Shown here in pieces: positions 442 to 56,670 of a stretch of 64,000 nt of DNA. The stretch covers positions 89,582 through 153,581 of the forward strand of contig CAVYCR010000005.1 in NCBI GenBank assembly GCA_963767115.1, given 5' to 3'. The stretch is from Candidatus Kaiserbacteria bacterium. Its GTDB lineage: Bacteria; Patescibacteriota; Minisyncoccia; Phycocordibacterales; UBA2100. How positions within the stretch are numbered: position 1 is the first letter of the stretch; each line of letters begins with the position of its first letter. The notes below the pieces were generated by a model that was not told the DNA's origin, did no database searches, and was given only the letters and a program-made list of their open reading frames with translations. The position numbers and the translations under genes are program-made.

Positions 442-975
442 TTAGTAAGAAAGCTTGACGGAACGTTCGAGCGCCATCGTACTCGAATCAATGGCACTGC
501 ACGAGACGTTGTAACCATTGGAAACGACCGAGGTACCTACCGAGCCGTTCGAGCTCGTCTTCGAGACGGTCACCTGCGTGCAATAGTTGTTGGGATTGCC
601 GTCGTAATCGAACTGGAATGTCTCACTGTAGGGATATTGCGCGGGACTTGTGAGGGTATAGGTGGTCGAGATCGTGAGCGGCTTTGTATCGCAGGTCGGC
701 GGGAAGCTGATCGTAGGATCGGAGCAGCTTGAAGGAGTCGTTGTCGCGAAGTATTGGCAGCGCAAATCCCAATAGAGCGCGCATTCGGCGCCGGTGTCGG
801 CGGCATAGAATGCGAACTGCGATTCTCGCGCGCTTGACGAGAGGATGATCTGCTTTTGTGCAATATCAAAAATCGCCGCACCGAGTGCGATAGCTATCGA
901 GGCGATGATCGCGGCAAGAAGGAGCGTGAACCCTCGCTTGTAGATACTGTCATGAATGATTGAACGGTAGCGCAT
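442..975 (-). CDS. type IV pilin-like minor pilin/pseudopilin (KRGFTLLL N-terminal helix, no Glu5)
   Basis: The N-terminus MRYRSIIHDSIYKRGFTLLLAAIIASIAIALG is a pilin-type hydrophobic helix. It is the last gene of the pilin cluster. Confidence 0.6.
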   Translation of the reverse strand: MRYRSIIHDSIYKRGFTLLLAAIIASIAIALGAAIFDIAQKQIILSSSARESQFAFYAADTGAECALYWDLRCQYFATTTPSSCSDPTISFPPTCDTKPLTISTTYTLTSPAQYPYSETFQFDYDGNPNNYCTQVTVSKTSSNGSVGTSVVSNGYNVSCSAIDSSTMALERSVKLSY

Positions 976-988
976 ATGGTAGTGATGA

Positions 989-1666
989 TTAGTCGAGGGG
1001 AAGCCAATTATACAGGTTCTCCGAGATCGAGAAGGTGCGGCTCGCGAAACTCCCCGTCTGCCAGATGATAGTGACGGTGATATGAATCTCCTGCGGGATT
1101 CCGGTACTGCTACTTGTCACCACAGTCGCGTTCGCGTATCGCTGGAAATTGGTGTTCGTCCACCCGCTCGCGTTTGAATATCCAAAAAGTTGGCCGTCCG
1201 TCTGCAGTGTATCCTCTGCGACCGAACACGTAGAGCCACTTGCACCGCAAGCGGTCAATGTCGGGGTCGTCTTATGCGCATCAATGATGAAAGCTTGACC
1301 GATCGGAATGCAGGTGAAGATGCCGTTGGGAGTCAGCGATGGATCGGAGCATGCATCCGGGCTCGTAAGCGATCCTTCGTCGAGCGCGAGCACGTTGCCG
1401 TCGCGGACACTTCGTACTGCCTCGAGACCTTCTTGCGCGAGGTTCTCAGCGGTGATCTCATCGCGCGCATAGTAGGCGCTCTCCAAGCTCTGCACGGTGA
1501 GCGCCATCGGCGCCACGATCGAAACCGTAAGTAGTGTGATCGCTACCATCGTCTCGATAAGGGTGAACCCCGCTTGTAGCTTGTAGCTTGTAGCTTGTAG
1601 TCCTGAACGATTCGGAATTGAATTTCCTACAAGCTGATCTCTACAAGCTATAAGCTTCTTCATCAT
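989..1666 (-). CDS. type IV minor pilin with 33-aa leader (..SYKLQAG|FTLIETMVAITLL)
   Basis: GFTLIE prepilin cleavage/methylation motif. The ATG overlaps the upstream stop (ATGA at 1663-1666). Confidence 0.75.
   Translation of the reverse strand: MMKKLIACRDQLVGNSIPNRSGLQATSYKLQAGFTLIETMVAITLLTVSIVAPMALTVQSLESAYYARDEITAENLAQEGLEAVRSVRDGNVLALDEGSLTSPDACSDPSLTPNGIFTCIPIGQAFIIDAHKTTPTLTACGASGSTCSVAEDTLQTDGQLFGYSNASGWTNTNFQRYANATVVTSSSTGIPQEIHITVTIIWQTGSFASRTFSISENLYNWLPLD
1571..1657 (-). repeat. palindromic leader module copy 1: (cttgtag)x4 at 1573-1600, spacer, then complementary ctacaag units at 1627-1654
   Basis: The inverted repeat was read directly. It lies inside the leader-coding part of CDS 989-1666. 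Confidence 0.85.
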
Positions 1667-2280
1667 AGATCGAGGACGCGCTGCACCGCATTGGCTTCGA
1701 GATGGAAGGTGTTGGCCTGCGCCGTGCCGCTCGTGCCTTGGATGATAATGATCACGCGCGGCTGGATCGGCTGACACGTCGGGCCTTGCGAGCCGTAGTC
1801 ACAGCCGGATTTTGTCCCGACAACATAAAACGTAAGGTCGTTGATCGTCACCTCCGGGCTCGTGATCGCAAGCCAATTGTTGCCTCCGTCGGTCGACTCG
1901 CATATCGAATTTGCAGGACAACCACCGGAGCCAAAGCCTTCAGGCCCGAGCGCAAAAGACCACCGTTGTCCTTCTGTGCTGCAGCCGGGCGTGTCAGTAT
2001 TACAAGTAAAGGTGAATGCAGTGCCACCCGCCTGACAATCATCTGTGCCGTCGCCGATATACGCACCGACACCGCAATGAAACTGCGTGCCCATGCGGGC
2101 GTTACGCACCAAGTCGTCGAGCGCAATATTGAGATTGTTCATAGAATTCTGGATCGCTTGCGCCTTGCGGTCAGCCGCGACGAGCGAGAGAAGCGCCGCT
2201 ATACAGATGACCGAGACGATTGCGAAGAGCCCGACCGAGACGATCATTTCGACGAGCGTGAAGCCCCTTTGCGACGACAT
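1663..2280 (-). CDS. type IV pilin-like protein (MSSQRG|FTLVEMIVSVGLF)
   Basis: Prepilin motif GFTLVEM at an internal Met of ORF 1663-2346. The remainder is Cys-rich and secreted-like. Confidence 0.75.
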   Translation of the reverse strand: MSSQRGFTLVEMIVSVGLFAIVSVICIAALLSLVAADRKAQAIQNSMNNLNIALDDLVRNARMGTQFHCGVGAYIGDGTDDCQAGGTAFTFTCNTDTPGCSTEGQRWSFALGPEGFGSGGCPANSICESTDGGNNWLAITSPEVTINDLTFYVVGTKSGCDYGSQGPTCQPIQPRVIIIIQGTSGTAQANTFHLEANAVQRVLDL

Positions 2281-2317
2281 GCGGCGCCTTTCCTGATGCG
2301 ATGAATCAATCTGCATA

Positions 2318-2992
2318 TTATGTTTGGCTGACACTGATCTCGCCACTCGTCGAGATGATGATGTTCATCGTTTTGTGGCTGGAATTTGATTCGATGACAA
2401 TGCGCGCCGATTGCGCACCACCCGTGCAGTTCTCGTTGCCGTTTGTACCGAGCGCACATTGCGCATTGATCCAAGCGTTGGGTTCGGGGCGGACGAATAT
2501 AATGCTCAGCGTCGGAACCGGCGTCCACCCGCTGTTGGTGAGGATATCGACCTCAGATATGGTGAAACCGCTCGCGATCGTGGAGACCGAAACTTGCTCA
2601 GTACTCTCATAGGAACCGTCGCTGTTGGTGTCGGAGAAGAGTGTGTAGTTGTTGTTATTGTTATTATTATTGTTCGTCGAGAAAAAGATGCCGTATCCCA
2701 CGTTGAAGCCCGACGCGGAATTGCGCTCCACGGAAATGCCGTATACTTGCGCCTCGCGGATAGAGAGGCCGATGTCGTAGGCGAGGTTCGCGAGCTCGAT
2801 CTGGCCGCCGTTGAAGCTGTTGCTGTTGGCGAAGATCGCAGCCGCGATAAAGACGATGATGCCGCATACGACGAGAAGCTCGATGAGGGTGAAGGCAGCT
2901 TGTTGCTTGTAGCTTTTAGCTTGTAGCCGTAAGCGATTCAGAATTGAATTTCCTACAAGCTGATCTCTACAAGCTACAAGCTTTTTTTTCAT
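2318..2992 (-). CDS. type IV minor pilin with 33-aa leader (..SYKQQAA|FTLIELLVV), contains an Asn9 run
   Basis: Internal Met (MKKKLVACRDQLVGNS..) of ORF 2318-3424. There is an ATGA overlap with the pilD stop and an FTLIE motif. Confidence 0.75.
   Translation of the reverse strand: MKKKLVACRDQLVGNSILNRLRLQAKSYKQQAAFTLIELLVVCGIIVFIAAAIFANSNSFNGGQIELANLAYDIGLSIREAQVYGISVERNSASGFNVGYGIFFSTNNNNNNNNNYTLFSDTNSDGSYESTEQVSVSTIASGFTISEVDILTNSGWTPVPTLSIIFVRPEPNAWINAQCALGTNGNENCTGGAQSARIVIESNSSHKTMNIIISTSGEISVSQT
2897..2983 (-). repeat. palindromic leader module copy 2 (degenerate heptamers at 2899-2926, complementary ctacaag units at 2953-2980)
   Basis: Same architecture and a near-identical spacer (gattc.gaattgaatttcc) as copy 1. 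Confidence 0.85.
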
Positions 2993-3789
2993 AATGGAAG
3001 TGCGATGCCGTACATAGTCGTAAGCCACACGATGCAGGTACCTAGAATGAGAAACGGGCCGAACGGCACCTCGCTTCTCATTGTAAATCCACGAGCAAAT
3101 GATCCAAAGCGAGTTATCCCAAGAGAGTACATGATGCGCGGCAGCGCCAAGAGTATGCATACGCTCACGAGAGCTCCGATGATAAAAGAAAGCATGAGCG
3201 CGTAGAGTCCGGGACCGATCCCCAAGAGCCATCCCATGCCGAGGGCAAATTTCGCGTCGCCGAGGCCCATCCACGTCCCGCGCGATACTACCCAGAGGGC
3301 GAAGATCGGGAGCGCGCACGCAGGGCCGGAGAGGAGGAGCAAGACCAAGTCTTGATTTGCGCCGACATGCAAGATGCCCATGAAAGAGACGACGAGTGCG
3401 AGAAATGCGAATGCATACGCCCATTCGTCGGGGATGATGGTGTGCCGCAGGTCATATGCGGCAATTAAGACCAGAAGAGCCGCTATGATGAGGCTCAACA
3501 AGAGGATCGGTACAGCAAGCCCCGCTCCTGAGAGAAGTGCGAAAAGTACGCCGGTCGTAAGCTCGACGAGCGGATACTGAATCGATATCCGGCTCTTGCA
3601 ATAGCGGCAACGACCGAGAAGTATGATCCATGACAAGACCGGCACAAGGTCGTACCAAGCGAGTGGATGCTTGCAGCTCAAGCAGCCCGAGAAGCCGCCG
3701 AGCGAGCGTACTGAGCGACGCAAGATCACGACATTGAGAAAGCTCCCGACTATAAGTCCGTAAATACCACCAACCAAGGTCTCGATCAT
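2989..3789 (-). CDS. pilD: prepilin peptidase / N-methyltransferase (A24 family)
   Basis: Polytopic membrane protein with a CxxC..CxxC N-terminal region (GCLSCKHPL..RCRYCKSRI) and GDAKF-type aspartyl motifs. Confidence 0.9.
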   Translation of the reverse strand: MIETLVGGIYGLIVGSFLNVVILRRSVRSLGGFSGCLSCKHPLAWYDLVPVLSWIILLGRCRYCKSRISIQYPLVELTTGVLFALLSGAGLAVPILLLSLIIAALLVLIAAYDLRHTIIPDEWAYAFAFLALVVSFMGILHVGANQDLVLLLLSGPACALPIFALWVVSRGTWMGLGDAKFALGMGWLLGIGPGLYALMLSFIIGALVSVCILLALPRIMYSLGITRFGSFARGFTMRSEVPFGPFLILGTCIVWLTTMYGIALPL

Positions 3790-3822: not shown

Positions 3823-4446
3823 TCAGGAATGCACGTCGTAGCAATCTTGGCCGCTATTACCAGTATTTGTGTTGGGGCAGGGATTTGTCAGACTTCCACT
3901 AAAATCCTGAAGTGCACCATTGCCACAGTTTGATTGAGACAGGCCCGAAGGCTCTGTGTTCGGCGTGACGCCCGCTTCTGAGTTCAGCGCGCTATTTGTG
4001 TTGTTTTCCAAGGTCGCCCCGAGATGATATCCGGAGGGGTTGAGAGGGTTTGAGGTGGTACAAAGCGGGCTGTAGTAATAACAACTTGTCTCGTTACCGG
4101 CAACACAGGTGCCGGCTGAAGTCGGATCCGTCGGGATGACCGATATGTACCCGTTGCTTACAAGGTTGTTAGCCGATAGCTTGATCGGGTAATAGTTGTT
4201 GGAGTCGTAGTAGAGTTCGAGCGCAAGCTGTATTTCCTTGAGGTCTGAGATGCGTTTGGCGTCACGCGCTTGGACCTTTGCACTGTTCAAGGAAACAAGA
4301 ATGATGGAGGCGAGAATGCCGATGATGGCGATCACCACCAAGAGTTCTACGAGAGTGAATCCCCCACTTCGTCGAGAACTTCGCGGAGCACACTTCTGGC
4401 TCCTCAAGGTGCTGTTGCGACGAATCTCTTTTGAGATCATCTGCAT
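3823..4446 (-). CDS. type IV pilin
   Basis: GGFTLVELLVVIAIIGILASI class III signal/N-methylation motif after a basic leader. Confidence 0.8.
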   Translation of the reverse strand: MQMISKEIRRNSTLRSQKCAPRSSRRSGGFTLVELLVVIAIIGILASIILVSLNSAKVQARDAKRISDLKEIQLALELYYDSNNYYPIKLSANNLVSNGYISVIPTDPTSAGTCVAGNETSCYYYSPLCTTSNPLNPSGYHLGATLENNTNSALNSEAGVTPNTEPSGLSQSNCGNGALQDFSGSLTNPCPNTNTGNSGQDCYDVHS

Positions 4447-4520: not shown

Positions 4521-5039
4521 CTATGTACAGACGGTCACGCTTGCGGCGAGGTTCGTAGTCTCTTGCTTAGCATTACCATTGCTGTCTACGCACCACATTA
4601 TCGGTGTGCCGTTTTTAGACGCGGAGAGCGGGGCTTCTGTCGCCCAGTTGGAGGCGGAAGCATGGCAGGTCACGGTGTTCCAAGCACCAGCGGTTGCAAG
4701 TGTCGTATTGAGCGTTCCTGCACTTGCAAGCTGGCTGTTTGACTGGCTTTGAGCGCCGGCAAGGATCGTGCCTGCACCTGCGGGTGTCGCCGAGCCGAGT
4801 GCTGCGCAGCCGCCCGAGTAACTATTGGCATTGTTGGAAGCAAAGAGTTCCATCTGGGAACGGACACTGTCGAGGTCGCTCTTGACGCCTGCATCAACTC
4901 CCTTGCTGCGCGCTGTCGCAAGCGAGGCGAGAATGATGGCGGCCAAGATGCCGATGATGGCGATCACCACGAGAAGCTCGATGAGGGTGAAGCCTTTCGA
5001 CTTTCTCAATGCAAGACCGCGATTAAGTGATTTCTTCAT
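4521..5039 (-). CDS. type IV pilin (major-pilin-like), tandem paralog 1
   Basis: MKKSLNRGLALRKSKGFTLIELLVVIAIIGILAAI, with a C-terminal Cys pair. The start was taken at the internal Met at 5039. Confidence 0.85.
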   Translation of the reverse strand: MKKSLNRGLALRKSKGFTLIELLVVIAIIGILAAIILASLATARSKGVDAGVKSDLDSVRSQMELFASNNANSYSGGCAALGSATPAGAGTILAGAQSQSNSQLASAGTLNTTLATAGAWNTVTCHASASNWATEAPLSASKNGTPIMWCVDSNGNAKQETTNLAASVTVCT

Positions 5040-5243
5040 AACGTTATTTTGCTTCTTATGAAATAGTAATAAATTCAATAATGTAATTGTATACTGTCGC
5101 TTTATAATTGTGATGATTGTTGCGAGTCAGGTGTGGATAAACTGAGAAGTCTTTTACAGATGACGTTGCCAACGATGATACTAAAAACAAAAAGACTCCC
5201 GAAGGAGTCTTTTTGTTTTGATGCTTTCATGCATCGTGCAAAC

Positions 5244-5744
5244 TTATGTACAGATAGTGACGCTCGCGGCGAGGTTTGTGCTCTCTGCCTTAGCATCGCC
5301 GTTGCTGTCTACGCACCACATAGAAGGCGTGCCGTTTTTGGATGCGGAGAGCGGAGTCTCTGCGGCCCATGCTGATCCACTGTCGTGACAAGTTACGTTG
5401 TTCCAAGCGCCTGCGGTTGCCGCTGTCGTATTGAGCGTTCCTGCACTTGCAAGCTGGCTGTTGGCCTGAGTCTGAGCTCCGGCAAGGATAGTGCCTGCGC
5501 CTGCGGGTGTGGCGGAGCCGAGTGCTGCGCAACCGCCCGTATAACTATTAGCATTGCTCGACGCATAGAGCTCCATCTGAGAACGAACGCTATCCATATC
5601 GCTCTTGACGCCTGCATCAACTCCCTTGCTGCGCGCTGTCGCAAGCGAGGCGAGAATGATGGCGGCCAAGATGCCGATGATGGCGATCACCACGAGAAGC
5701 TCGATGAGGGTGAAACCTCGATTACGATTAAATGATTTCTTCAT
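5244..5744 (-). CDS. type IV pilin (major-pilin-like), tandem paralog 2
   Basis: MKKSFNRNRGFTLIELLVVIAIIGILAAI. Very similar to 4521-5039 along its full length. Confidence 0.85.
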   Translation of the reverse strand: MKKSFNRNRGFTLIELLVVIAIIGILAAIILASLATARSKGVDAGVKSDMDSVRSQMELYASSNANSYTGGCAALGSATPAGAGTILAGAQTQANSQLASAGTLNTTAATAGAWNNVTCHDSGSAWAAETPLSASKNGTPSMWCVDSNGDAKAESTNLAASVTICT

Positions 5745-5856
5745 ACCATTATATTTTTACTTTTTATAAACCATTAATAAATTCTATACGGCAATTGTAT
5801 AACGGTGCTTCATAATTTCTTATGACTGTTGCACACGGTTGTGGATAACGGAACTC

Positions 5857-5937
5857 AGCTTCTAGCTGCTAGTGGCTAGCTTCTAGTAAAAAGAAAGTGA
5901 CGTATAGATTTTAGCTAGAAGCTAGCCCCTAGAAGCT
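5857..5937 (-). repeat. palindromic element just downstream of the pilC stop (arms agcttctag/ctagaagct and gctagcttctag/ctagaagctagc)
   Basis: Read directly. The unit differs by 1 nt from the leader-module unit (gcttCtag vs gcttGtag). Confidence 0.8.
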
Positions 5938-5946
5938 TCTTCTGCA

Positions 5947-7166
5947 TTAGAACGTCCCGGCGATCTGGTAGATCGGCAAGAGGACTGCCGCGAGCAAGAC
6001 GCCGACGCCGACGGCGAGAAAGACGATCATCACCGGCTCGATGAGACCGACAAGTGTATCGATCGCGTTGTCGACCTCGCGCCGATAGAAGCGGGAAATG
6101 GTCTCAAGGATGACGCCCATGTTGCCCGTCTCCTCGCCTATCTTTACCATCGCGACGATGATCCCGGGCATCTCCGGATGTTTGCGCAGTGCCTCGCTGA
6201 GCGGCATGCCGCCCTTCACGTCGACACCCGCGTCAGCGAGCACCTGCATGTAGATCGGGTCGCCCACGACGGCGCCCGTGATCTCTATCGCACGCAGGAT
6301 CTGAATACCGCTCTTGAGCATTGTGGAAAGGTTGTCGGCGATGCGCGAGAGGAAAATCTTCTTGTAGATGCCGCCGATGATCGGCATCTGCAGGCGCGCA
6401 CGCGAAAGTACCTGGCGGCCGCTTTCTGTCTGTGAATATCGATAGAGGAAGAAAGCGCCGACGAAGGTCATAATAATGATCAAGAGGATGTATTGGCGCA
6501 CAAACTCCGACGTACCGATCACGATCTGCGTGGTGATGGGCGGCTTCTGTCCGGCCGTGGTGATCATGCTGGCAAGGTTCGGGATGACGATCGTCATCAT
6601 GAGTGTCATGACCACGACGAACGTGAATATAATGAACGCCGGATAGATCAGAGCATTGCGAGCTTTCTGGATGATTTCGTAGTTACGGTCGAGGTACGAG
6701 GCAAGGTAGGTGAATGTCTCGTCGAGCTTGCCGCTCTCTTCGCCGGCGCGCACCATGTTGACATAAAAGTCCGAAAACATTTCCGGATGGTGCGACATAG
6801 CCACCGAGATCGAGGAGCCGGACTGGATCTCGTTGCCTACGTCGTTGAGCTTCTCGGCGACTAAGGGCGTGCGTGCTTCCTCGGCAAGCAAGCGAAATGC
6901 GCGCAATGCCGAGACCTGTGCCTCAAAGAGCGTCGTCATCTGACGCGAGATCATCACGATATCTTCGTTGGTGACGCGGTCGAAAAAGAGATGCGGCCCG
7001 AAAGGACGCCGCTTGCACCCTTCTTCTCTCCCACCGGCTCGATCTTGGAGATCACCAAGCCGCGATGCTGCAGCGCCGAGATCGCGAGGTCGACGTTGAC
7101 CGCGTCGATAGTGCCTTCACGCTCATGCGCTTCGCTGTCGAGTGCTGTGTAGGAAAAGACGGCCAT
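5947..7166 (-). pseudogene. pilC: type IV pilus platform protein PilC/GspF, split by one frameshift
   Basis: ORFs 6954-7166 and 5947-6957 are the N- and C-parts of one GspF-family protein. The frames rejoin if the A5 run at 6983-6987 is A6 (..GRISFFDRVTNEDIVMISRQ..). Confidence 0.85.
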
Positions 7167-7184: not shown

Positions 7185-8249
7185 TCAGATGAGTTTGTTG
7201 AGCGTGGTCGGGTTGAGCGAATACTGATAGGCAGTCTCCGCTGTGATCTCGCCACGCGCCACGAGGTCTGCAAGAGAGTGGTTGAAGTCGATCATGCCTT
7301 CGGTCGAGCTCGTCTCGATCACCACGTCGATCTCTTTGGTGCGGCTCTCGCGAATGAGGTTCCCCACTGCGTTGTTGTTGATCAAGAGCTCACAAGCCGG
7401 GATCAGCCCGCCGGAGATACGCGGCAACAAACGCTGGCTGAAAATACCCGCAAGCGAGGACGACGAGCTGGATGCGGATCTGGTCTTGTTGGCCGGCCGG
7501 AAAGGCATCGATGATACGGTCGATGGTCTGCGAAGCATTGTTGGTATGGAGTGTAGAGAAGACCAAGTGGCCGGTCTCGGCGGCGGTAACGGCAGCCGAC
7601 ATCGTCTCGTGGCCCGCGCATTTCGCCTACAAGTATCACGTCGATGTCTTCGCGGAAAGCGGCGTTGAGCGCCGACTCGAAGCTCTTGGTGTCGATACCG
7701 ACTTCGCGCTGGTCGATGAGGGATTGTTTGTGTCTCAAAAAGGTATTCGATAGGGTCTTCGATCGTGACGATGTGCTCCATGCGCTCAGTGTTGATCGCT
7801 TCGATAAGCGATGCGAGCGTCGTGGTCTTCCCCTGGCCTACCGGTCCCACGACGAGGAAAAAGCCTTGCGCGCGTCGCGCGAAGCTGATGAGTGTCTCAG
7901 GCAAGCCGAGCTCTGCGATCGTGCGAATCTTCTTCGGAATCACGCGCAGCGCGATAGCGATCGTGCCGCGCTGATAGAAAGCGTTGCCGCGGAATCGTGA
8001 GCCCTCTTCGCCTTCATAGGCGAAGTCGATCTCCTGGTCGACCTTGAATTTTTCCATCCGCTCCTTGGAAATGAGCGCGCGCAAAAAGCCTTCAAGATCC
8101 TCGGGGGTCAAGACTGGCTCCTTGAGCATCGGCATAAGGTTGCTACTGACACGGATGGTCGGGTGAATGCCTGCCGAGAAATGCAAATCGGAAGCACCCT
8201 CATGCACGAGCACGTTGATATATTTTTTGAGAATCTGAGGATAGTCCAT
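7185..8249 (-). pseudogene. pilT: twitching-motility ATPase PilT, three internal +1 frameshifts
   Basis: Walker A GPVGQGKTTT is in the main frame. The conserved blocks KQSLIDQREVG..VGEMRG and [17 protein letters not shown] lie in the other two frames (ORFs 7403-7738 and 7390-7602). Confidence 0.85.
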
Positions 8250-8677: not shown

Positions 8678-10408
<1,731 letters not shown>

Positions 10409-13340: not shown

Positions 13341-13530
13341 TTAAAAAGTATATCACGCGCAGCATGAGCGAACTGGTTCTGTAACGAATTGGAGACAATC
13401 TGATTGTCTACACATGATGCATTCTTATACTTCAAGAGCTGATGTTAGCAACAAAAAAAGAAAATCCCCGGGCCCAAGTGACAAAGTGTCACGGATTCCG
13501 AGGATTCCGTCCGCCAGCGGCGGACAAAGT

Positions 13531-14004
13531 TCAAAGCGACTGCTTGGCGAGAGAGAGGACCTGAGGGAAGGCACGCCGCCTGCGGTCGCCGCGCTGCCAC
13601 GTGATGACACGCCACTCGCCGCTGTAGACATCGTCCCAGTGTACCGTCACGAGGCAGGAACTCGTGTAGAACAAGTTGGCGTAGCCGTTGCTTAGCAACG
13701 TCCCCTTCTTGCCGCCGGGCTGTTGCCCAATCAGCTGCGCGATGACCGCGCACATAGCACTCTCATCGAAGAGATTTCCCGACAAAGCGGCCTCGATCTT
13801 TTTGTCGGTCGCGTCTTTGGCGAGATCGGCGATGCCGAGGCTGAAGGTGGTACCCGCTTGCATCGGCTTCGCCCTGACTACGACGAGCTTGCGCATATCG
13901 CACCACACATAGAGCCCATCTCCGGTGAGATAGAAGTCCTCGGGATAGTGGTCCTCTATCGTCGTGATCGAGACGGGATCGCGGGATATTAAGATCTGAT
14001 TCAT
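13531..14004 (-). CDS. DGR variable-protein paralog (remote or orphan target)
   Basis: Paralog of 46758-47417 (..GDGLYVW..GTTF..CAV[IV]A..SNGYANLFYTSSC..). The start is at ATG 14004, preceded by GGAGG. Confidence 0.75.
   Translation of the reverse strand: MNQILISRDPVSITTIEDHYPEDFYLTGDGLYVWCDMRKLVVVRAKPMQAGTTFSLGIADLAKDATDKKIEAALSGNLFDESAMCAVIAQLIGQQPGGKKGTLLSNGYANLFYTSSCLVTVHWDDVYSGEWRVITWQRGDRRRRAFPQVLSLAKQSL
13548..13663 (-). other. VR-like C-terminal region of the remote DGR-target paralog
   Basis: Collinear with the TR. Variable residues fall at TR AAC codons, but several non-A differences and a 3-nt insertion are also present. Confidence 0.6.
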
Positions 14005-16262: not shown

Positions 16263-16354
16263 GCCGGACACCCGAAAGGCACTCACGGCTTCTGAGCAAT
16301 GTCTGAGCGGAGCGAGTTGCGGAAGAAGCCGTGAGTGCCTTTCGGGTGTCCGGC
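16263..16354. repeat. perfect 30-bp inverted repeat with a 32-nt loop
   Basis: gccggacacccgaaaggcactcacggcttc (16263-16292) is the exact reverse complement of 16325-16354. Confidence 0.95.
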
Positions 16355-34327: not shown

Positions 34328-34438
34328 GAACAAGAACCTCAAATGGCTCTTAACACGCTAAAGAACTAATCTTGCTACTGATGCCGGCCCTTGTGCCGGT
34401 ATTTTCTTATTCATTGGGGAAAAAATAGCTGCCCCTCC

Positions 34439-35347
34439 CTAATGATCCTCGGCTCGCAAGCCAAGCTCGAGAACGACAACAGGGGTGTGAATGTGAAGCG
34501 CGGGCTTCGGACGCGCTGCGAGATGGGACTGCGCCCCGGCGTCGCGCCAGTAGGCTACAGCAACGAGAAACATGCGGATCGGAAATGTCATGCGGTAGTA
34601 GATACCGTGCGAGCGCCCGTTATCAAGCAGATGTTCGAGAAGGTCGCGAACGAGAAGTACAGCGGCCGAAGGCTTCATCAATGGCTGAAGTTCGATATCA
34701 ACTTCAAGAGTCGTGGCAATAAGAATATGACGCTCAGCAGCGTCTACGTAGTTCTACAGAACCCCTTCTACTACGGTGTATTCGAGTACCCGGAGAAGAG
34801 CGGCAACTGGTATCAGGGCAAGCACGAACCGTTGATATCCAAGGAATTATTCGAAAAGGTACAGGCGCAGCTCAAGCGAGACAACATACAGCGCGAATCG
34901 CACGAATTCGCCTTCACCAAGCTCATGACCTGCGGCAAGTGCGGATCATGCATCAGTGCTGAGGAAAAATACAAACAGCGAAAAGATGGCACGACCGCCC
35001 GCTACGTCTACTACGGATGCGGACGCACTCGCGACAAACAGTGCAAAGGCAATACGTATCTACGAGAGGAGGAACTCGTAGAGCAATTGCTCAAGATCAT
35101 CGATCAGATCGATATCAACCAGATCAACGTGCAAATGAAATTCGAAGACGAATTGAAACGGCACAATAAATTCCAGCGTACGGTACTTGGACTCTCAGAC
35201 CCGAGTGCAACGCATGAGGAGATCAATATCCGGACCTATGCAAAATACATTCTCAAGGAGGGCACGAATGAGGAGAAGCGCGAGTTGATGGGATGCTTCA
35301 AGTCGAAGTTGAAGATCATGAAAGGGGTTGTGACGATAGAAATCTGA
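34439..35347 (+). pseudogene. 5'-truncated large serine recombinase (lacks the catalytic resolvase domain)
   Basis: Collinear with residues from about 143 to the end of the recombinase at 51974-53305, with an offset of 17961 bp. The 3' ~560 nt are near-identical. Homology starts abruptly at ..LMILGSQAKLENDN. Confidence 0.8.
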
Positions 35348-46443: not shown

Positions 46444-46757
46444 GTATCCGAAGCCGTCTGTGCCACCACCCATCGAATACTCTACGGGCTGTATCTGATT
46501 CGGGGCATCGAAGCCCGCTGACCTCGGATACCAACTGACCAATGTTTTTGTGGAGACCGGCTACGCACACTTCCTTAAGCCGTGGCCGAAAGAATTCTAA
46601 CGAAGCCGTTTCCGAAATCTCCGCGCTCAAGCCTTAACCGGAGCGCCACCAGAAATTTCATATGTAGTATATCAAAAAGAAAATCCCCGGGCCCAGTGAC
46701 AAAGTGTCAAAGGGTCCGAGGATTCAGCTCGCCAAGGGCGAGCAAAGGTGCAGAGGG

Positions 46758-47417
46758 TCAGTTGGCGGGAGAGAGAACCCGAACGCCGGCGCTCCACCCG
46801 AGGCCGCCGCGGTCCCACGTGTTCACGCCCCACTTCGAGCTGACGGCGCGCCAGAACACGAACACGACACAGGAACTCGTGTAGAACAGGTTGGCGTAGC
46901 CGTTGTTCAGCAAATCGCCTTCCTTGCCCTCGGGCTGTTTGGAGATCATCTCGGCGACGACGGCGCACAGCGCGCCCTCGTCCCAAAGGTGATTCTTGGG
47001 CAAACCGTTTTCGATTTCCTTGTCCGTCAAGTCCGCGCCGAGTTCATCGACATTGACCTTGAAGGTAGTGCCGGTGTTGATCGGCTTCGCCAACTTGACC
47101 ACGCGAGTCTGGAAGTCGTCCCAGACGTAGAGTCCGTCGCGCGTCTTGAAGAAGGCGTCGGGGTTGCGATGGTCGGAGTCGGTAATCGTGATGGAAAGCT
47201 GCGGACGGCGGATGAGTGCCATCATGCTCTTAATTACATCTTCGATAGCGGTTTCGAGCCGTCCCGCGAGGATTTCGGTCTTGTCCTTGATCCCCGCGAG
47301 CACCACCTTGGGATCGCCGAATTTCGCGGCGACTTTCGGCAATGCGACCGCGAGCGCACTGGTAACGTTCGAGTTGAGTTCGGCCATCTGGCCGGGACTG
47401 AAGGCTGTTCCACTCAT
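46758..47417 (-). CDS. DGR variable (target) protein
   Basis: The C-terminal 38 aa are encoded by the VR. It is a paralog of 13531-14004. Confidence 0.85.
   Translation of the reverse strand: MSGTAFSPGQMAELNSNVTSALAVALPKVAAKFGDPKVVLAGIKDKTEILAGRLETAIEDVIKSMMALIRRPQLSITITDSDHRNPDAFFKTRDGLYVWDDFQTRVVKLAKPINTGTTFKVNVDELGADLTDKEIENGLPKNHLWDEGALCAVVAEMISKQPEGKEGDLLNNGYANLFYTSSCVVFVFWRAVSSKWGVNTWDRGGLGWSAGVRVLSPAN
46766..46880 (-). other. DGR variable repeat (VR)
   Basis: Offset +437 from the TR. There are 19 substitutions, all at TR A positions (plus-strand T), and 0 at the roughly 85 non-A positions. Confidence 0.9.
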
Positions 47418-51973: not shown

Positions 51974-53305
51974 ATGGATCAAATCATCGAGCGACCATTC
52001 CCCGGAGGACAGATCGGGAGACCGGAACTGAAGATCGTTCCGCTCAAGTTTTGCCTCTACGCTCGCAAGAGCACCGAGAGCGAAGAACGGCAAGTGCTCT
52101 CCATCGACTCGCAGATCAAGGAGATGCTCCAGCTGGCTGAGCGCGAAGGATTGGAGATTGTCGCGATGAAGCGCGAGAGCCACTCAGCCAAAGAAGCAGG
52201 ACAGCGTCCCGTCTTCAACGAGATTGTCGAAGAAATGAAAACGGGAAAGTTCAACGCGATTCTCACGTGGGCACCGGATCGCATCTCACGCAACGCTGGC
52301 GACCTTGGGAAAGTCATCGACCTCATGGACGCCGGAGTGCTGATGGAGATCCGCACGTATAGTCAGTCGTTCCGTAATAACCCGAACGAGAAGTTTCTCC
52401 TGATGATTCTGGGGAGTCAGGCAAAACTCGAGAACGACAATCGCGGCGTAAACGTAAAGCGAGGACTTAGAACGCGCTGCGAGATGGGACTGCGGCCCGG
52501 AAGCACGTTGACCGGATATCTCAACGAACGGCGAATGGACCGGAAGTGCGAGGTCATCATCGATCCGGATCGCGGGCCGGTGATACGGAAGATGTTCGAG
52601 AAAGTCGGTTATGAAAAGTGGTCAGGGCCGCGATTGTATCATTGGCTCCGGTTCGAACTGAACTTTCAGACGCAAGGCAAGAAACCGCTCTCACTCGGCA
52701 ACATGTACCGCATTCTTTCCAACCCCTTCTACCATGGCATATTTGAGTATCCACGAAAGAGCGGCAACTGGTATCAGGGCAAGCACGAACCGTTGATATC
52801 CAAGGAATTATTCGAAAAGGTACAGGCGCAGCTCAAGCGAGACAACATACAGCGCGAATCGCATGAGTTCGCCTTCACGAAACTCATGACCTGCGGCAAG
52901 TGCGGATCGTGCATCAGTGCCGAGGAAAAGTACAAGCAGCGCAAGGATGGCACGACCGCACGATACGTCTACTACGGTTGTGGGCGTACGCGTGACAAAC
53001 AGTGCAAAGGCAATACGTATCTGCGAGAGGAGGAACTCGTAGAGCAACTGCTCAAGATCATCGACCAGATCGACATCAACCAGATCAACGTGCAAATGAA
53101 ATTCGAGGACGAATTGAAACGGCACAACAAATTCCAGCGCACGGTACTTGGTCTCTCAAATCCGAGCGCTACGCATGAGGAGATCAATATCAGAACATAT
53201 GCAAAATACATCCTGAAGGAAGGTACGAACGAGGAGAAACGCGAGCTGATGGGGTGCTTTAAGTCGAACTTCAAAGTCAACAATGGGGCTGTGACGATCG
53301 AGTAA
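51974..53305 (+). CDS. large serine recombinase (resolvase N-domain, recombinase domain, zinc ribbon)
   Basis: ..YARKSTESEERQVLSIDSQ.. catalytic Ser region, ..W.PDRISRN.., and a CGKCGS..YYGC zinc ribbon. Confidence 0.9.
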   Translation: MDQIIERPFPGGQIGRPELKIVPLKFCLYARKSTESEERQVLSIDSQIKEMLQLAEREGLEIVAMKRESHSAKEAGQRPVFNEIVEEMKTGKFNAILTWAPDRISRNAGDLGKVIDLMDAGVLMEIRTYSQSFRNNPNEKFLLMILGSQAKLENDNRGVNVKRGLRTRCEMGLRPGSTLTGYLNERRMDRKCEVIIDPDRGPVIRKMFEKVGYEKWSGPRLYHWLRFELNFQTQGKKPLSLGNMYRILSNPFYHGIFEYPRKSGNWYQGKHEPLISKELFEKVQAQLKRDNIQRESHEFAFTKLMTCGKCGSCISAEEKYKQRKDGTTARYVYYGCGRTRDKQCKGNTYLREEELVEQLLKIIDQIDINQINVQMKFEDELKRHNKFQRTVLGLSNPSATHEEINIRTYAKYILKEGTNEEKRELMGCFKSNFKVNNGAVTIE

Positions 53306-56584: not shown

Positions 56585-56670
56585 GCAAAATAAATAACGG
56601 GGGGAATAATTTTCCCGCTTCCGCCTGTCGTTCGGGTCGGGAAAATTATTCCCCCCGTTATTTATTTTGC
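56585..56670. repeat. 33-bp near-perfect inverted repeat (20-nt loop) between the MFP and RND genes
   Basis: gcaaaataaataacggggggaataattttcccg (56585-56617) is the reverse complement of 56638-56670. Confidence 0.95.

Follow-up and report, generated by a model that had tools for sequence, protein, structure and literature searches.

Heptanucleotide repeats are the commonest class of long simple sequence repeats in bacteria according to Mrazek (2007), as summarized in PMC4679880. In Xanthomonas, GGGAATC repeats are mostly made of four units and intergenic, and 70 to 75 convergent pairs of tracts per genome are capable of forming stem-loops, whose function is unknown (PMC4692102). TAACTGA heptamer repeats of marine Beggiatoaceae, cyanobacteria, and Bacteroidetes bring stop codons in all three frames, lie a few nucleotides from start codons or overlap upstream stop codons, and are occasionally translated at protein termini in their stop-free orientation (PMC4679880). 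Repetitive extragenic palindromes (REPs) prefer convergent and unidirectional gene junctions and are sometimes intragenic (PMC3733652), and Rickettsia palindromic elements (RPEs) are translated in frame (PMC10969869). We analyzed a 64,000-nucleotide stretch of DNA, hereafter the window, from a Candidatus Kaiserbacteria bacterium (contig CAVYCR010000005.1, positions 89,582 to 153,581). Two palindromes made of tandem heptamers, modules A and B, are located in the leader-coding region of two minor prepilin genes of its type IV pilus cluster, and the stop codons that the heptamers would introduce in frame have been edited. The minus strand carries all the relevant genes, and coordinates are those of the window.

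Class III prepilin leaders are about 5 to 10 residues long in type IVa pilins. The first minor prepilin gene after the prepilin peptidase gene pilD (gene B; 2318..2992, minus strand, 224 residues) starts at an ATG (2992-2990) overlapping the TGA of pilD (2991-2989). Similarly, the PilV-like minor prepilin gene (gene A; 989..1666, minus strand, 225 residues) starts at an ATG (1666-1664) overlapping the TGA (1665-1663) of the second minor prepilin gene, both overlaps having the form ATGA. The predicted leaders comprise 33 residues, ending in QAA before FTLIE in gene B and consisting of MMKKLIACRDQLVGNSIPNRSGLQATSYKLQAG before FTLIE in gene A. The Pfam N_methyl domain was located at residues 29-51 of gene A (E 1.7e-6) and 29-54 of gene B (E 5.3e-6), which leaves about 28 residues ahead of the normal prepilin N-terminus. 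These results confirm the 33-residue leaders and the ATGA starts reported for both genes in a first-pass annotation of this DNA. The Gly that it placed at position -1 is present in gene A, the residue in gene B being Ala. Genes A and B otherwise display the features of prepilins, namely a cleavage motif with Glu at +5 followed by a hydrophobic helix, and the locus encodes a dedicated prepilin peptidase (PilD, peptidase A24; 2989..3789, minus strand; A24_N_bact 2.8e-28, Peptidase_A24 1.2e-9). Only the length of the leaders falls outside the usual range of ~5 to 10 residues.

Module A (1572..1657, minus strand) is composed of a 5' arm of 31 nt (1657-1627; AAGCTTA TAGCTTG TAGAGAT CAGCTTG TAG), a loop of 26 nt (1626-1601), and a 3' arm of 29 nt (1600-1572) consisting of four CTACAAG units followed by C. 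Module B (2897..2983, minus strand) is a paralogous copy with its 5' arm at 2983-2953, its loop at 2952-2927, and its 3' arm at 2926-2897. Both start ~9 to 12 nt after the ATG and end two codons before the Gly or Ala that precedes FTLIE. The two modules are 87% identical over 115 nt and have divergent flanks, around which no direct repeat indicative of a target-site duplication was seen. Each arm contains four tandem heptamers, the stem being an interrupted helix of ~30 bp. Tandem Repeats Finder assigned a period of 7 to both modules (4.1 copies at 100% for A and 4.4 copies at 83% for B), and the window contains 9 occurrences of the heptamer 15-mer versus 1.05 expected, a count reached in 0 of 100 shuffles.

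Folding of the mRNA strand gave minimum free energies of -34.1 kcal/mol for module A (z -4.7) and -37.5 kcal/mol for module B (z -5.6), and 0 of 200 shuffles folded as well, in support of the initial description of the leader region as an inverted repeat. The complementary strand folds slightly better (-39.9 kcal/mol for A and -42.1 kcal/mol for B), and G-U pairs were therefore uninformative as to which strand acts as RNA. The 3' heptamers had also been described as four exact complements of the 5' units. This fails for module B, which contains CTAAAAG and CAACAAG, and the third 5' unit is AGATCAG in both modules instead of a unit of the CTTGTAG type.

The latter unit accounts for the asymmetry of the hairpin. 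A perfect 5' arm, (GCTTGTA)4, would bring a TAG every 7 nt, one unit in three being in frame. The unit that would otherwise carry the in-frame TAG is AGATCAG in both modules, whereas three out-of-frame TAGs are retained. The internal loop of the hairpin thus coincides with the unit expected to bring an in-frame stop. To extend the comparison, every prepilin motif was scanned in 80 loci of relatives from GTDB (Kaiserbacteria and Paceibacteria; loci designated by L and a number). Alignment of nine leader modules from six genomes revealed TAG at none of the 18 in-frame phased triplets (CAG, 12 times; AAG, 5 times; CGG, once), as opposed to 17 of the 27 out-of-frame phased triplets. In L007, the CTGAAAG unit is replaced by CTGACAG, CCGGCAG, or CTGGCAG, and the in-frame TGA has disappeared from the 3' arm. 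L005 uses the unit CTTACAG, and many leaders of relatives have units of the xxxxCAG or xxxxTGG type. Together, these results indicate that the leader modules are edited at in-frame stop codons.

Editing of the reading frame suggests that the modules are translated. As indicated by the first-pass annotation, no in-frame ATG, GTG, or TTG is present between the hairpin and the cleavage site, the last such codon preceding that site by 32 codons in A and by 33 codons in B. An in-frame ATT remains in the loop of both modules (codon 17) and could act as a rare start. Initiation at a non-canonical codon inside or after the palindrome would leave the hairpin untranslated, as part of a 5' untranslated region or of an intercistronic spacer. 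The ATT would be available for this purpose, and the public gene call for the gene at 989-1666 (P0001, 186 residues) omits the leader; moreover, L039 has a canonical start 5 codons before the cleavage site. This explanation is nonetheless very improbable, since in-frame ATG, GTG, and TTG codons are absent downstream of the hairpin in modules A and B and in many of their relatives. In addition, the internal Met at which P0001 starts follows FTLIET, leading to a protein devoid of a prepilin cleavage motif. In relatives, every period-7 hairpin located within ~25 nt of a minor-pilin cleavage site is in an open frame that reaches an ATG at the upstream stop. Such a frame is very unlikely to be open by chance in an element that natively contains stops in all frames. 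The absence of a downstream start and the open frames of the relatives support the proposal, already made at first pass, that the structure is translated and would then be removed with the leader.

Long leaders of this type are common in relatives. The PilV-like protein encoded by gene A has 121 homologues, from Kaiserbacteria, Paceibacteria, and other Parcubacteria, many of which have leaders of 30 to 47 residues resembling translated repeats (for example, LLQATSYKLQAG before FTLIE or a leader containing LSAVSYQLSV). In the sampled loci, leaders of at least 25 residues were found in 61 of the 237 minor-pilin genes, the longest reaching ~55 residues, and a strong 7-nt period was detected in 28 of these 61 genes. 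The period was found in 9 of the 176 minor pilins with short leaders and in 2 of the 121 major pilins, which have a median leader of 10 residues. For the minor-pilin leaders containing hairpins, arms with a clear period had period 7 in 16/16 and 15/15 cases, whereas the hairpins preceding the major-pilin genes are short stems of the terminator type without a period. Palindromic pairs of tracts in ~1 Mb numbered 10 for period 7, none for periods 5, 6, and 9, and one for period 8. The heptamer itself varies by genome (AGCTTGT, AGCTTTC, CACAGCN, GGCAACA, ATATCGT, and others). Two of the minor-pilin paralogues of a genome usually share one module, loop included (the window, L007, L013, L022, L201, and L203), as if the 5' ends of pilin genes had been copied onto one another or had undergone gene conversion. 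Full in-frame modules are also present in the orthologous fourth genes of L007 and L013. The module is absent from about three quarters of the minor-pilin genes, including the nearest relative of gene A, in L207, where the end of the upstream gene is alike and the leader has 21 residues and no palindrome.

Several leaders in this sample have other unusual features. A minor-pilin leader of L023 (4430-4640) contains tandem copies of the cleavage motif (SVSRGFTLSRTSVSRGFTLVRTSVSRG before FTLIE), and a pseudo-motif, GFTRQNF, precedes the real cleavage site by a few residues in several genomes (odd leaders of L058, L065, L048, and L077). In L003 (5540-6006), the frame is open for 156 codons upstream of a PilV-like cleavage site, back to an ATG, and begins with a sequence of the heptamer type (MMKKITVYSV). 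This looks like a larger insertion, and the long leader may be unused because an in-frame start is present 6 codons before the cleavage site.

The heptamer palindrome is not confined to pilin leaders. Metagenome contigs were scanned for the pattern AGCTTGTAG-N18-48-CTACAAGCTAMAAGC, which was found in at least 120 contigs, with 134 matches among those listed; the figures that follow refer to these listed matches and contigs. Elements classified for context were intergenic, tightly fitted between genes, in 121 of 122 cases, and the gene pairs were convergent (36), tandem (47), or divergent (4), the junction preference known for REPs. Only 2 of the 134 matches precede a prepilin motif, and prepilin-like sites of any kind are present in only 9 of the 120 contigs. 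The contigs span 33 to 66% G+C. Outside the search anchor, the phased triplet was TAG in 105 of the 128 units on the 5' side and CTA in 97 of the 128 units on the 3' side; TAG was found off phase at 0 of 546 positions, and the unit is variable at its other four positions. Thus, the canonical element can be written (NNNNTAG)n-loop-(CTANNNN)n, and inward reading of either strand meets stops in all three frames. The proposed check, whether the module always sits in pilin leaders, therefore gave a negative answer, and the related suggestion of a REP-like palindrome residing where protein constraint is relaxed gained support from the intergenic location of the family.

No match to the palindrome was found in the 2.9 million viral contigs of IMG/VR, and a viral origin was rejected. 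Translated (CTACAAG)n occurs elsewhere only in open reading frames (ORFs) of 39 to 72 residues without Pfam domains, some of them from Gammaproteobacteria. The names attached to spurious ORFs with SYKLQAT repeats (Pseudomonas syringae, Alcanivoracaceae, and Simiduia) indicate that the heptamer is not confined to the candidate phyla radiation (CPR). Longer intergenic members with 6 to 10 or more GCTTGTAG/GCTTGTGG units per arm were observed in metagenome contigs L099, L100, and L166, indicating that the number of units can expand outside coding sequence. Our literature search retrieved no published description of widespread TAG palindromes with a 7-nt phase at gene boundaries. A protein-binding site of the HutP type, (UAGNNNN)3, was also considered. 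Its period and triplet fit the intergenic family, but many leader modules have CAG or other units, and the site is kept as a lead only, no search for a HutP-like gene having been made.

The window itself contains an intact member of the family, which the first-pass annotation had not reported. Module C (approximately 5857..5938, minus strand) is an intergenic palindrome made of CTAGAAG units that keep the TAG/CTA phase (-38.1 kcal/mol, z -3.3). It starts a few nucleotides after the stop codon of pilC (5947..6957, minus strand; TAA at 5949-5947), upstream of the promoter region of the major pilins, and an overlapping ATG opens only a 10-codon mini-ORF ending at a TAG. An intact TAG palindrome is also located directly after pilC in L022 and L065. 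Other intact palindromes were found after a major pilin and abutting the pilD start in L061 and abutting the ligA start in L042. In the fourth minor pilin-like gene of the window (442..975, minus strand; DSIYKRG before FTLLL), a single CTACAAGCG unit (943-935), located just before the G-1 codon, may be the remnant of a 3' arm. This unit had escaped notice, as had the heptamer-phased stop codon and the presence of AGATCAG at the would-be in-frame TAG. All three heptamer palindromes of the window belong to the pilus cluster.

Each of the two major-pilin genes is preceded by a conserved motif, CCGTTATCCACA (TTTATCCACAC for the second copy), at ~5853-5840 and 5143-5130 (minus strand); the motif is also present in L022, L065, and L206. 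In L022, L065, and the window, it closely follows the post-pilC palindrome on the downstream side, and it may be a candidate promoter or regulator site of the major pilin.

Two other intergenic palindromes of the window have a similar geometry and no 7-nt period, and neither was retained as a member of the family. The palindrome at 16263-16354, between pterin dehydratase-like and comF-like genes, is perfect, with 31-nt arms and a 30-nt loop; that at 56585-56670, between efflux adaptor and AcrB-like genes, is also perfect, with 33-nt arms and a 20-nt loop. Other assignments of modules A to C were considered and rejected. A consensus scan for intrinsic terminators and promoters flagged none of the three modules, which have 26-nt loops and no T tract after the stem. 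A DNA-uptake sequence was rejected because the heptamer shows no over-representation in the window outside the three modules. TIGR arrays consist of tandem units with box C/D motifs beside a Tas gene encoding a Nop domain (PMC12045711). The modules are single hairpins located 1.3 kb and ~3 kb apart in the pilus operon and do not form an array, box motifs and a Tas gene not having been searched.

These observations lead us to propose, with a probability of roughly 60%, that modules A and B are intragenic, translated, stop-edited members of the heptamer-palindrome family residing in a disposable part of the prepilins, the leader. The native site of the family is the gene junction, just after a stop codon. 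In the sampled loci, the start lies no more than 20 nt from the upstream stop in 210 of 234 minor-pilin genes, with an overlap in 104. An upstream stop could be identified for 115 of the 121 major-pilin genes, and 95 of these 115 are preceded by gaps of more than 20 nt. Since the genes of the minor-pilin operon overlap (ATGA) and leave no spacer, a palindrome directly after the upstream stop would necessarily fall between the start codon and the cleavage site. Two features would enable it to persist at that position. First, the in-frame TAG units have been changed to CAG or AAG, opening the frame at the expense of base pairs. Second, the ~29 extra residues would belong to a class III leader cut by PilD and never reach the mature pilin. 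Tight packing of the minor-pilin genes and removal of the leader would together account for the restriction to minor pilins, the frame that is always open, and stop editing.

Residence in the leader is predicted to affect initiation of translation. A stem of -34 to -37 kcal/mol located ~9 to 12 nt after the AUG would be inside the footprint of the 30S subunit and would block free initiation. Translation would then depend mainly on ribosomes terminating on the overlapping upstream stop, coupling the two genes and keeping minor pilins at a low level. Judging from the position of the stem, the effect of the modules is probably enforced translational coupling or low output. A role at the mRNA level, in processing or as a decay barrier, is equally compatible with the preference of the family for gene ends.

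Several points weigh against the proposal that modules A and B are translated members of the family hosted in the leader. Translation, cleavage by PilD of 33-residue leaders (one with Ala at -1), and the coupling effect are deduced from the DNA sequence. The pilT, pilB, and pilC genes look frameshifted, which may reflect decaying pilus machinery or assembly indels; the reading frames of the modules are intact despite this, and the pattern recurs in many other assemblies. Among strict detections of the palindrome in the 80 loci, 14 of 15 were in the pilus locus, in addition to the 3 of 3 in the window, and a pilus-specific role would also explain this clustering. Finally, comparison of six V-type genes revealed identities of 0.82 for the 3' arm and 0.70 for the 5' arm, versus 0.32 for the loop, 0.34 for four-fold sites (saturated), and 0.53 for amino acids. 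Arms far above neutral sites indicate that the element is not simply a decaying passenger. The sequence of the arms, as opposed to pairing as such, is being maintained, either by selection or by recurrent homogenization from other copies.

Conserved arms would also be expected of a cis-regulatory element dedicated to the pilus locus. In this explanation, the hairpin or the YAGC/GCTR cores would be selected, as a binding site for a protein reading a motif every 7 nt or as an RNase III site or decay barrier, setting the stoichiometry of the tip minor pilins, the leader being merely the forced site. In addition to the arms, it draws on the stability of the hairpins (z -4.7 to -6.5), a count of 4+4 units throughout the six genomes, recurrence in the same three or four genes, the post-pilC palindrome occupying the same position with different sequences, and the location of all three window copies within the pilus cluster. 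Pairing itself gave a different picture. In the alignment of nine modules, 74.9% of the cells pair, versus 12 to 42% when partners were slid. Shuffling of the 3' partners preserved this value (75.3%, with 360 of 500 shuffles at least as high), indicating that the nine modules contain no covariation. Only 4 pairs are changed on both sides, which is the chance level, 13 of 31 pairs depart by unpaired cells only, and one pair is broken in 9 of 9 modules by the in-frame CAG. The evidence on selection of the hairpin itself is therefore mixed. An Rfam scan of the whole window returned 0 matches at the gathering threshold, the module is missing from most orthologues, among them the closest relative, L207, and from about three quarters of the minor-pilin genes, and the identical palindrome is intergenic beside unrelated genes in 98% of the metagenome matches listed. 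We therefore regard a dedicated cis-regulatory element as unlikely, and the structure-selected regulatory RNA envisaged by the first-pass annotation did not withstand these comparisons.

The repetitive nature of the modules also raised the question of phase variation, by analogy with the CTCTT repeats that Neisseria opa genes carry in the region encoding the signal peptide. Gain or loss of a 7-nt unit by slipped-strand mispairing would shift the frame and switch the minor pilin on or off. The length of the unit, which is not a multiple of three, the location of the repeats within a dispensable 5' coding region, and the four perfect CTACAAG units of module A are in keeping with this mechanism, and the leader of P0050 is shorter than that of P0027 by 21 nt, i.e., three units. 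However, the nine modules from six genomes all have exactly 4+4 units without any 7-nt indel, and an identical module was found in three independent assemblies from different samples. Substitutions interrupt the repeats, thereby suppressing slippage, and no out-of-frame variant was seen, the truncated call that was examined (P0014, L207) corresponding to an intact short leader. Phase variation is thus quite improbable.

A broader possibility, which we put forward tentatively and with low confidence, is that TAG-phased heptamer palindromes are functional gene-boundary elements shared across phyla. They would combine a stop in all frames of both strands with a hairpin and possibly recruit a factor reading a YAGC core every 7 nt. 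Members of the CPR would have domesticated stop-edited copies in prepilin leaders, tying synthesis of the tip minor pilins to the preceding gene. A functional boundary element would explain the identity of the arms (0.82 versus 0.34 for synonymous sites), the fixed number of units, and the position after pilC, which a passive passenger does not.

The remainder of the pilus cluster comprises a pilT-like gene (7185..8249), two major-pilin genes (5244..5744 and 4521..5039), an additional pilin gene (3823..4446), and the second minor prepilin gene (1663..2316), all on the minus strand; the latter is module-free and has the leader MQIDSSHQERRRMSSQRG or MSSQRG. In minus-strand reading order, the four minor pilin genes are followed by ligA, and the gene order of the cluster is kept in relatives. 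The tandem major-pilin genes (4521-5078 and 5244-5777) are 81 to 88% identical, upstream regions included (repeat families D1, D5, and D18), and are separated by a short terminator-like hairpin (5184-5219). The Pfam T2SSE match of the pilT-like ORF (7185-8249) spans residues 6-172 only, the conserved middle of pilT being continued, in two further frames, by ORFs 7403..7738 and 7390..7602. The N-terminal half of the pilB-like ORF (8913-9530, minus strand) is junk, and pilC is split (6954..7166 and 5947..6957, minus strand). Elsewhere in the window, dispersed direct repeats were found at 13456-13767 versus 46674-46982 and at 34438-34976 versus 52399-52937 (73 to 83% identical and 18 to 33 kb apart).

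Annotation of the PilV-like minor pilins is systematically incorrect, since homologues P0014, P0075, P0077, and P0089 are truncated in the same way as P0001. An exact-protein look-up of gene A returned no match because the source annotates the truncated product. The modules explain this truncation by gene callers as well as the odd leaders of 30 to 55 residues in CPR pilin sets. They offer a natural example of a stop-laden intergenic repeat absorbed into a reading frame through single-step TAG-to-CAG edits at in-frame units, prepilin leaders acting as a sink or niche for such DNA. Conservation of the arms of the TAG-palindrome family calls for a functional explanation. Type IV pili being central to the episymbiotic lifestyle of CPR bacteria, any factor setting minor-pilin dosage in them deserves testing.

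The first-pass annotation knew of no described equivalent of the modules. This no longer holds in view of the repeats described in Xanthomonas (PMC4692102) and Beggiatoaceae (PMC4679880) and of REPs and RPEs (PMC3733652, PMC10969869). The Xanthomonas pairs resemble the modules by their tandem 7-nt units, inverted arms, and stem-loop potential. They are intergenic, as are module C and 121 of the 122 metagenome elements listed, whereas modules A and B are in ORFs. The Xanthomonas repeats are also G-rich, with G-quadruplexes discussed, contain no phased stop, and are not reported in reading frames; the elements described here have a TAG/CTA core and are predicted to be translated. TAACTGA repeats share with the heptamer palindromes all-frame stops, proximity to starts and stops, and a cross-phylum distribution. 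They are direct (one inverted set in 170), form no hairpins, and have a different unit and no association with cleavable leaders.

Like modules A and B, intragenic REPs and RPEs are the in-frame minority of mainly intergenic elements, located at permissive sites such as N-termini. REPs are single palindromes of 20 to 40 bp that bear a GTAG or CGTC tag, are present in many copies, and are often associated with a RAYT transposase; RPEs are families of conserved sequences of ~100 to 150 bp. The modules have arms made of tandem heptamers, with GTAG inside every unit instead of a single terminal tag, an unconserved loop, three copies in the 64 kb of the window, and a removed leader as host, no transposase being known (none was searched). 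As for RPEs, the frame is open and lacks a downstream start, which suggests in-frame insertion; the conservation of RPEs over the whole element is not found, since loop identity is 0.32 between genomes and no flanking direct repeat is present.

The Neisseria opa repeats are also made of a unit that is not divisible by three and lie within the cleaved leader of a surface protein. The modules differ from them by the lack of observed copy-number polymorphism, by few and interrupted units, and by the presence of an inverted copy. Finally, genes A and B encode class III prepilins as judged from Gly or Ala at -1, FTLIE starting at Phe +1 with Glu at +5, a hydrophobic N-terminal helix, and an adjacent A24 gene. 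Unlike the usual class III leaders, those of genes A and B are 33 residues long, and their sequence appears to be dictated by a DNA palindrome and not by peptide function. In comparison to the systems described so far, the new features are the TAG-phased palindromic form, its systematic occurrence within the prepilin leaders of a CPR clade, and the frame-specific editing of stop codons.

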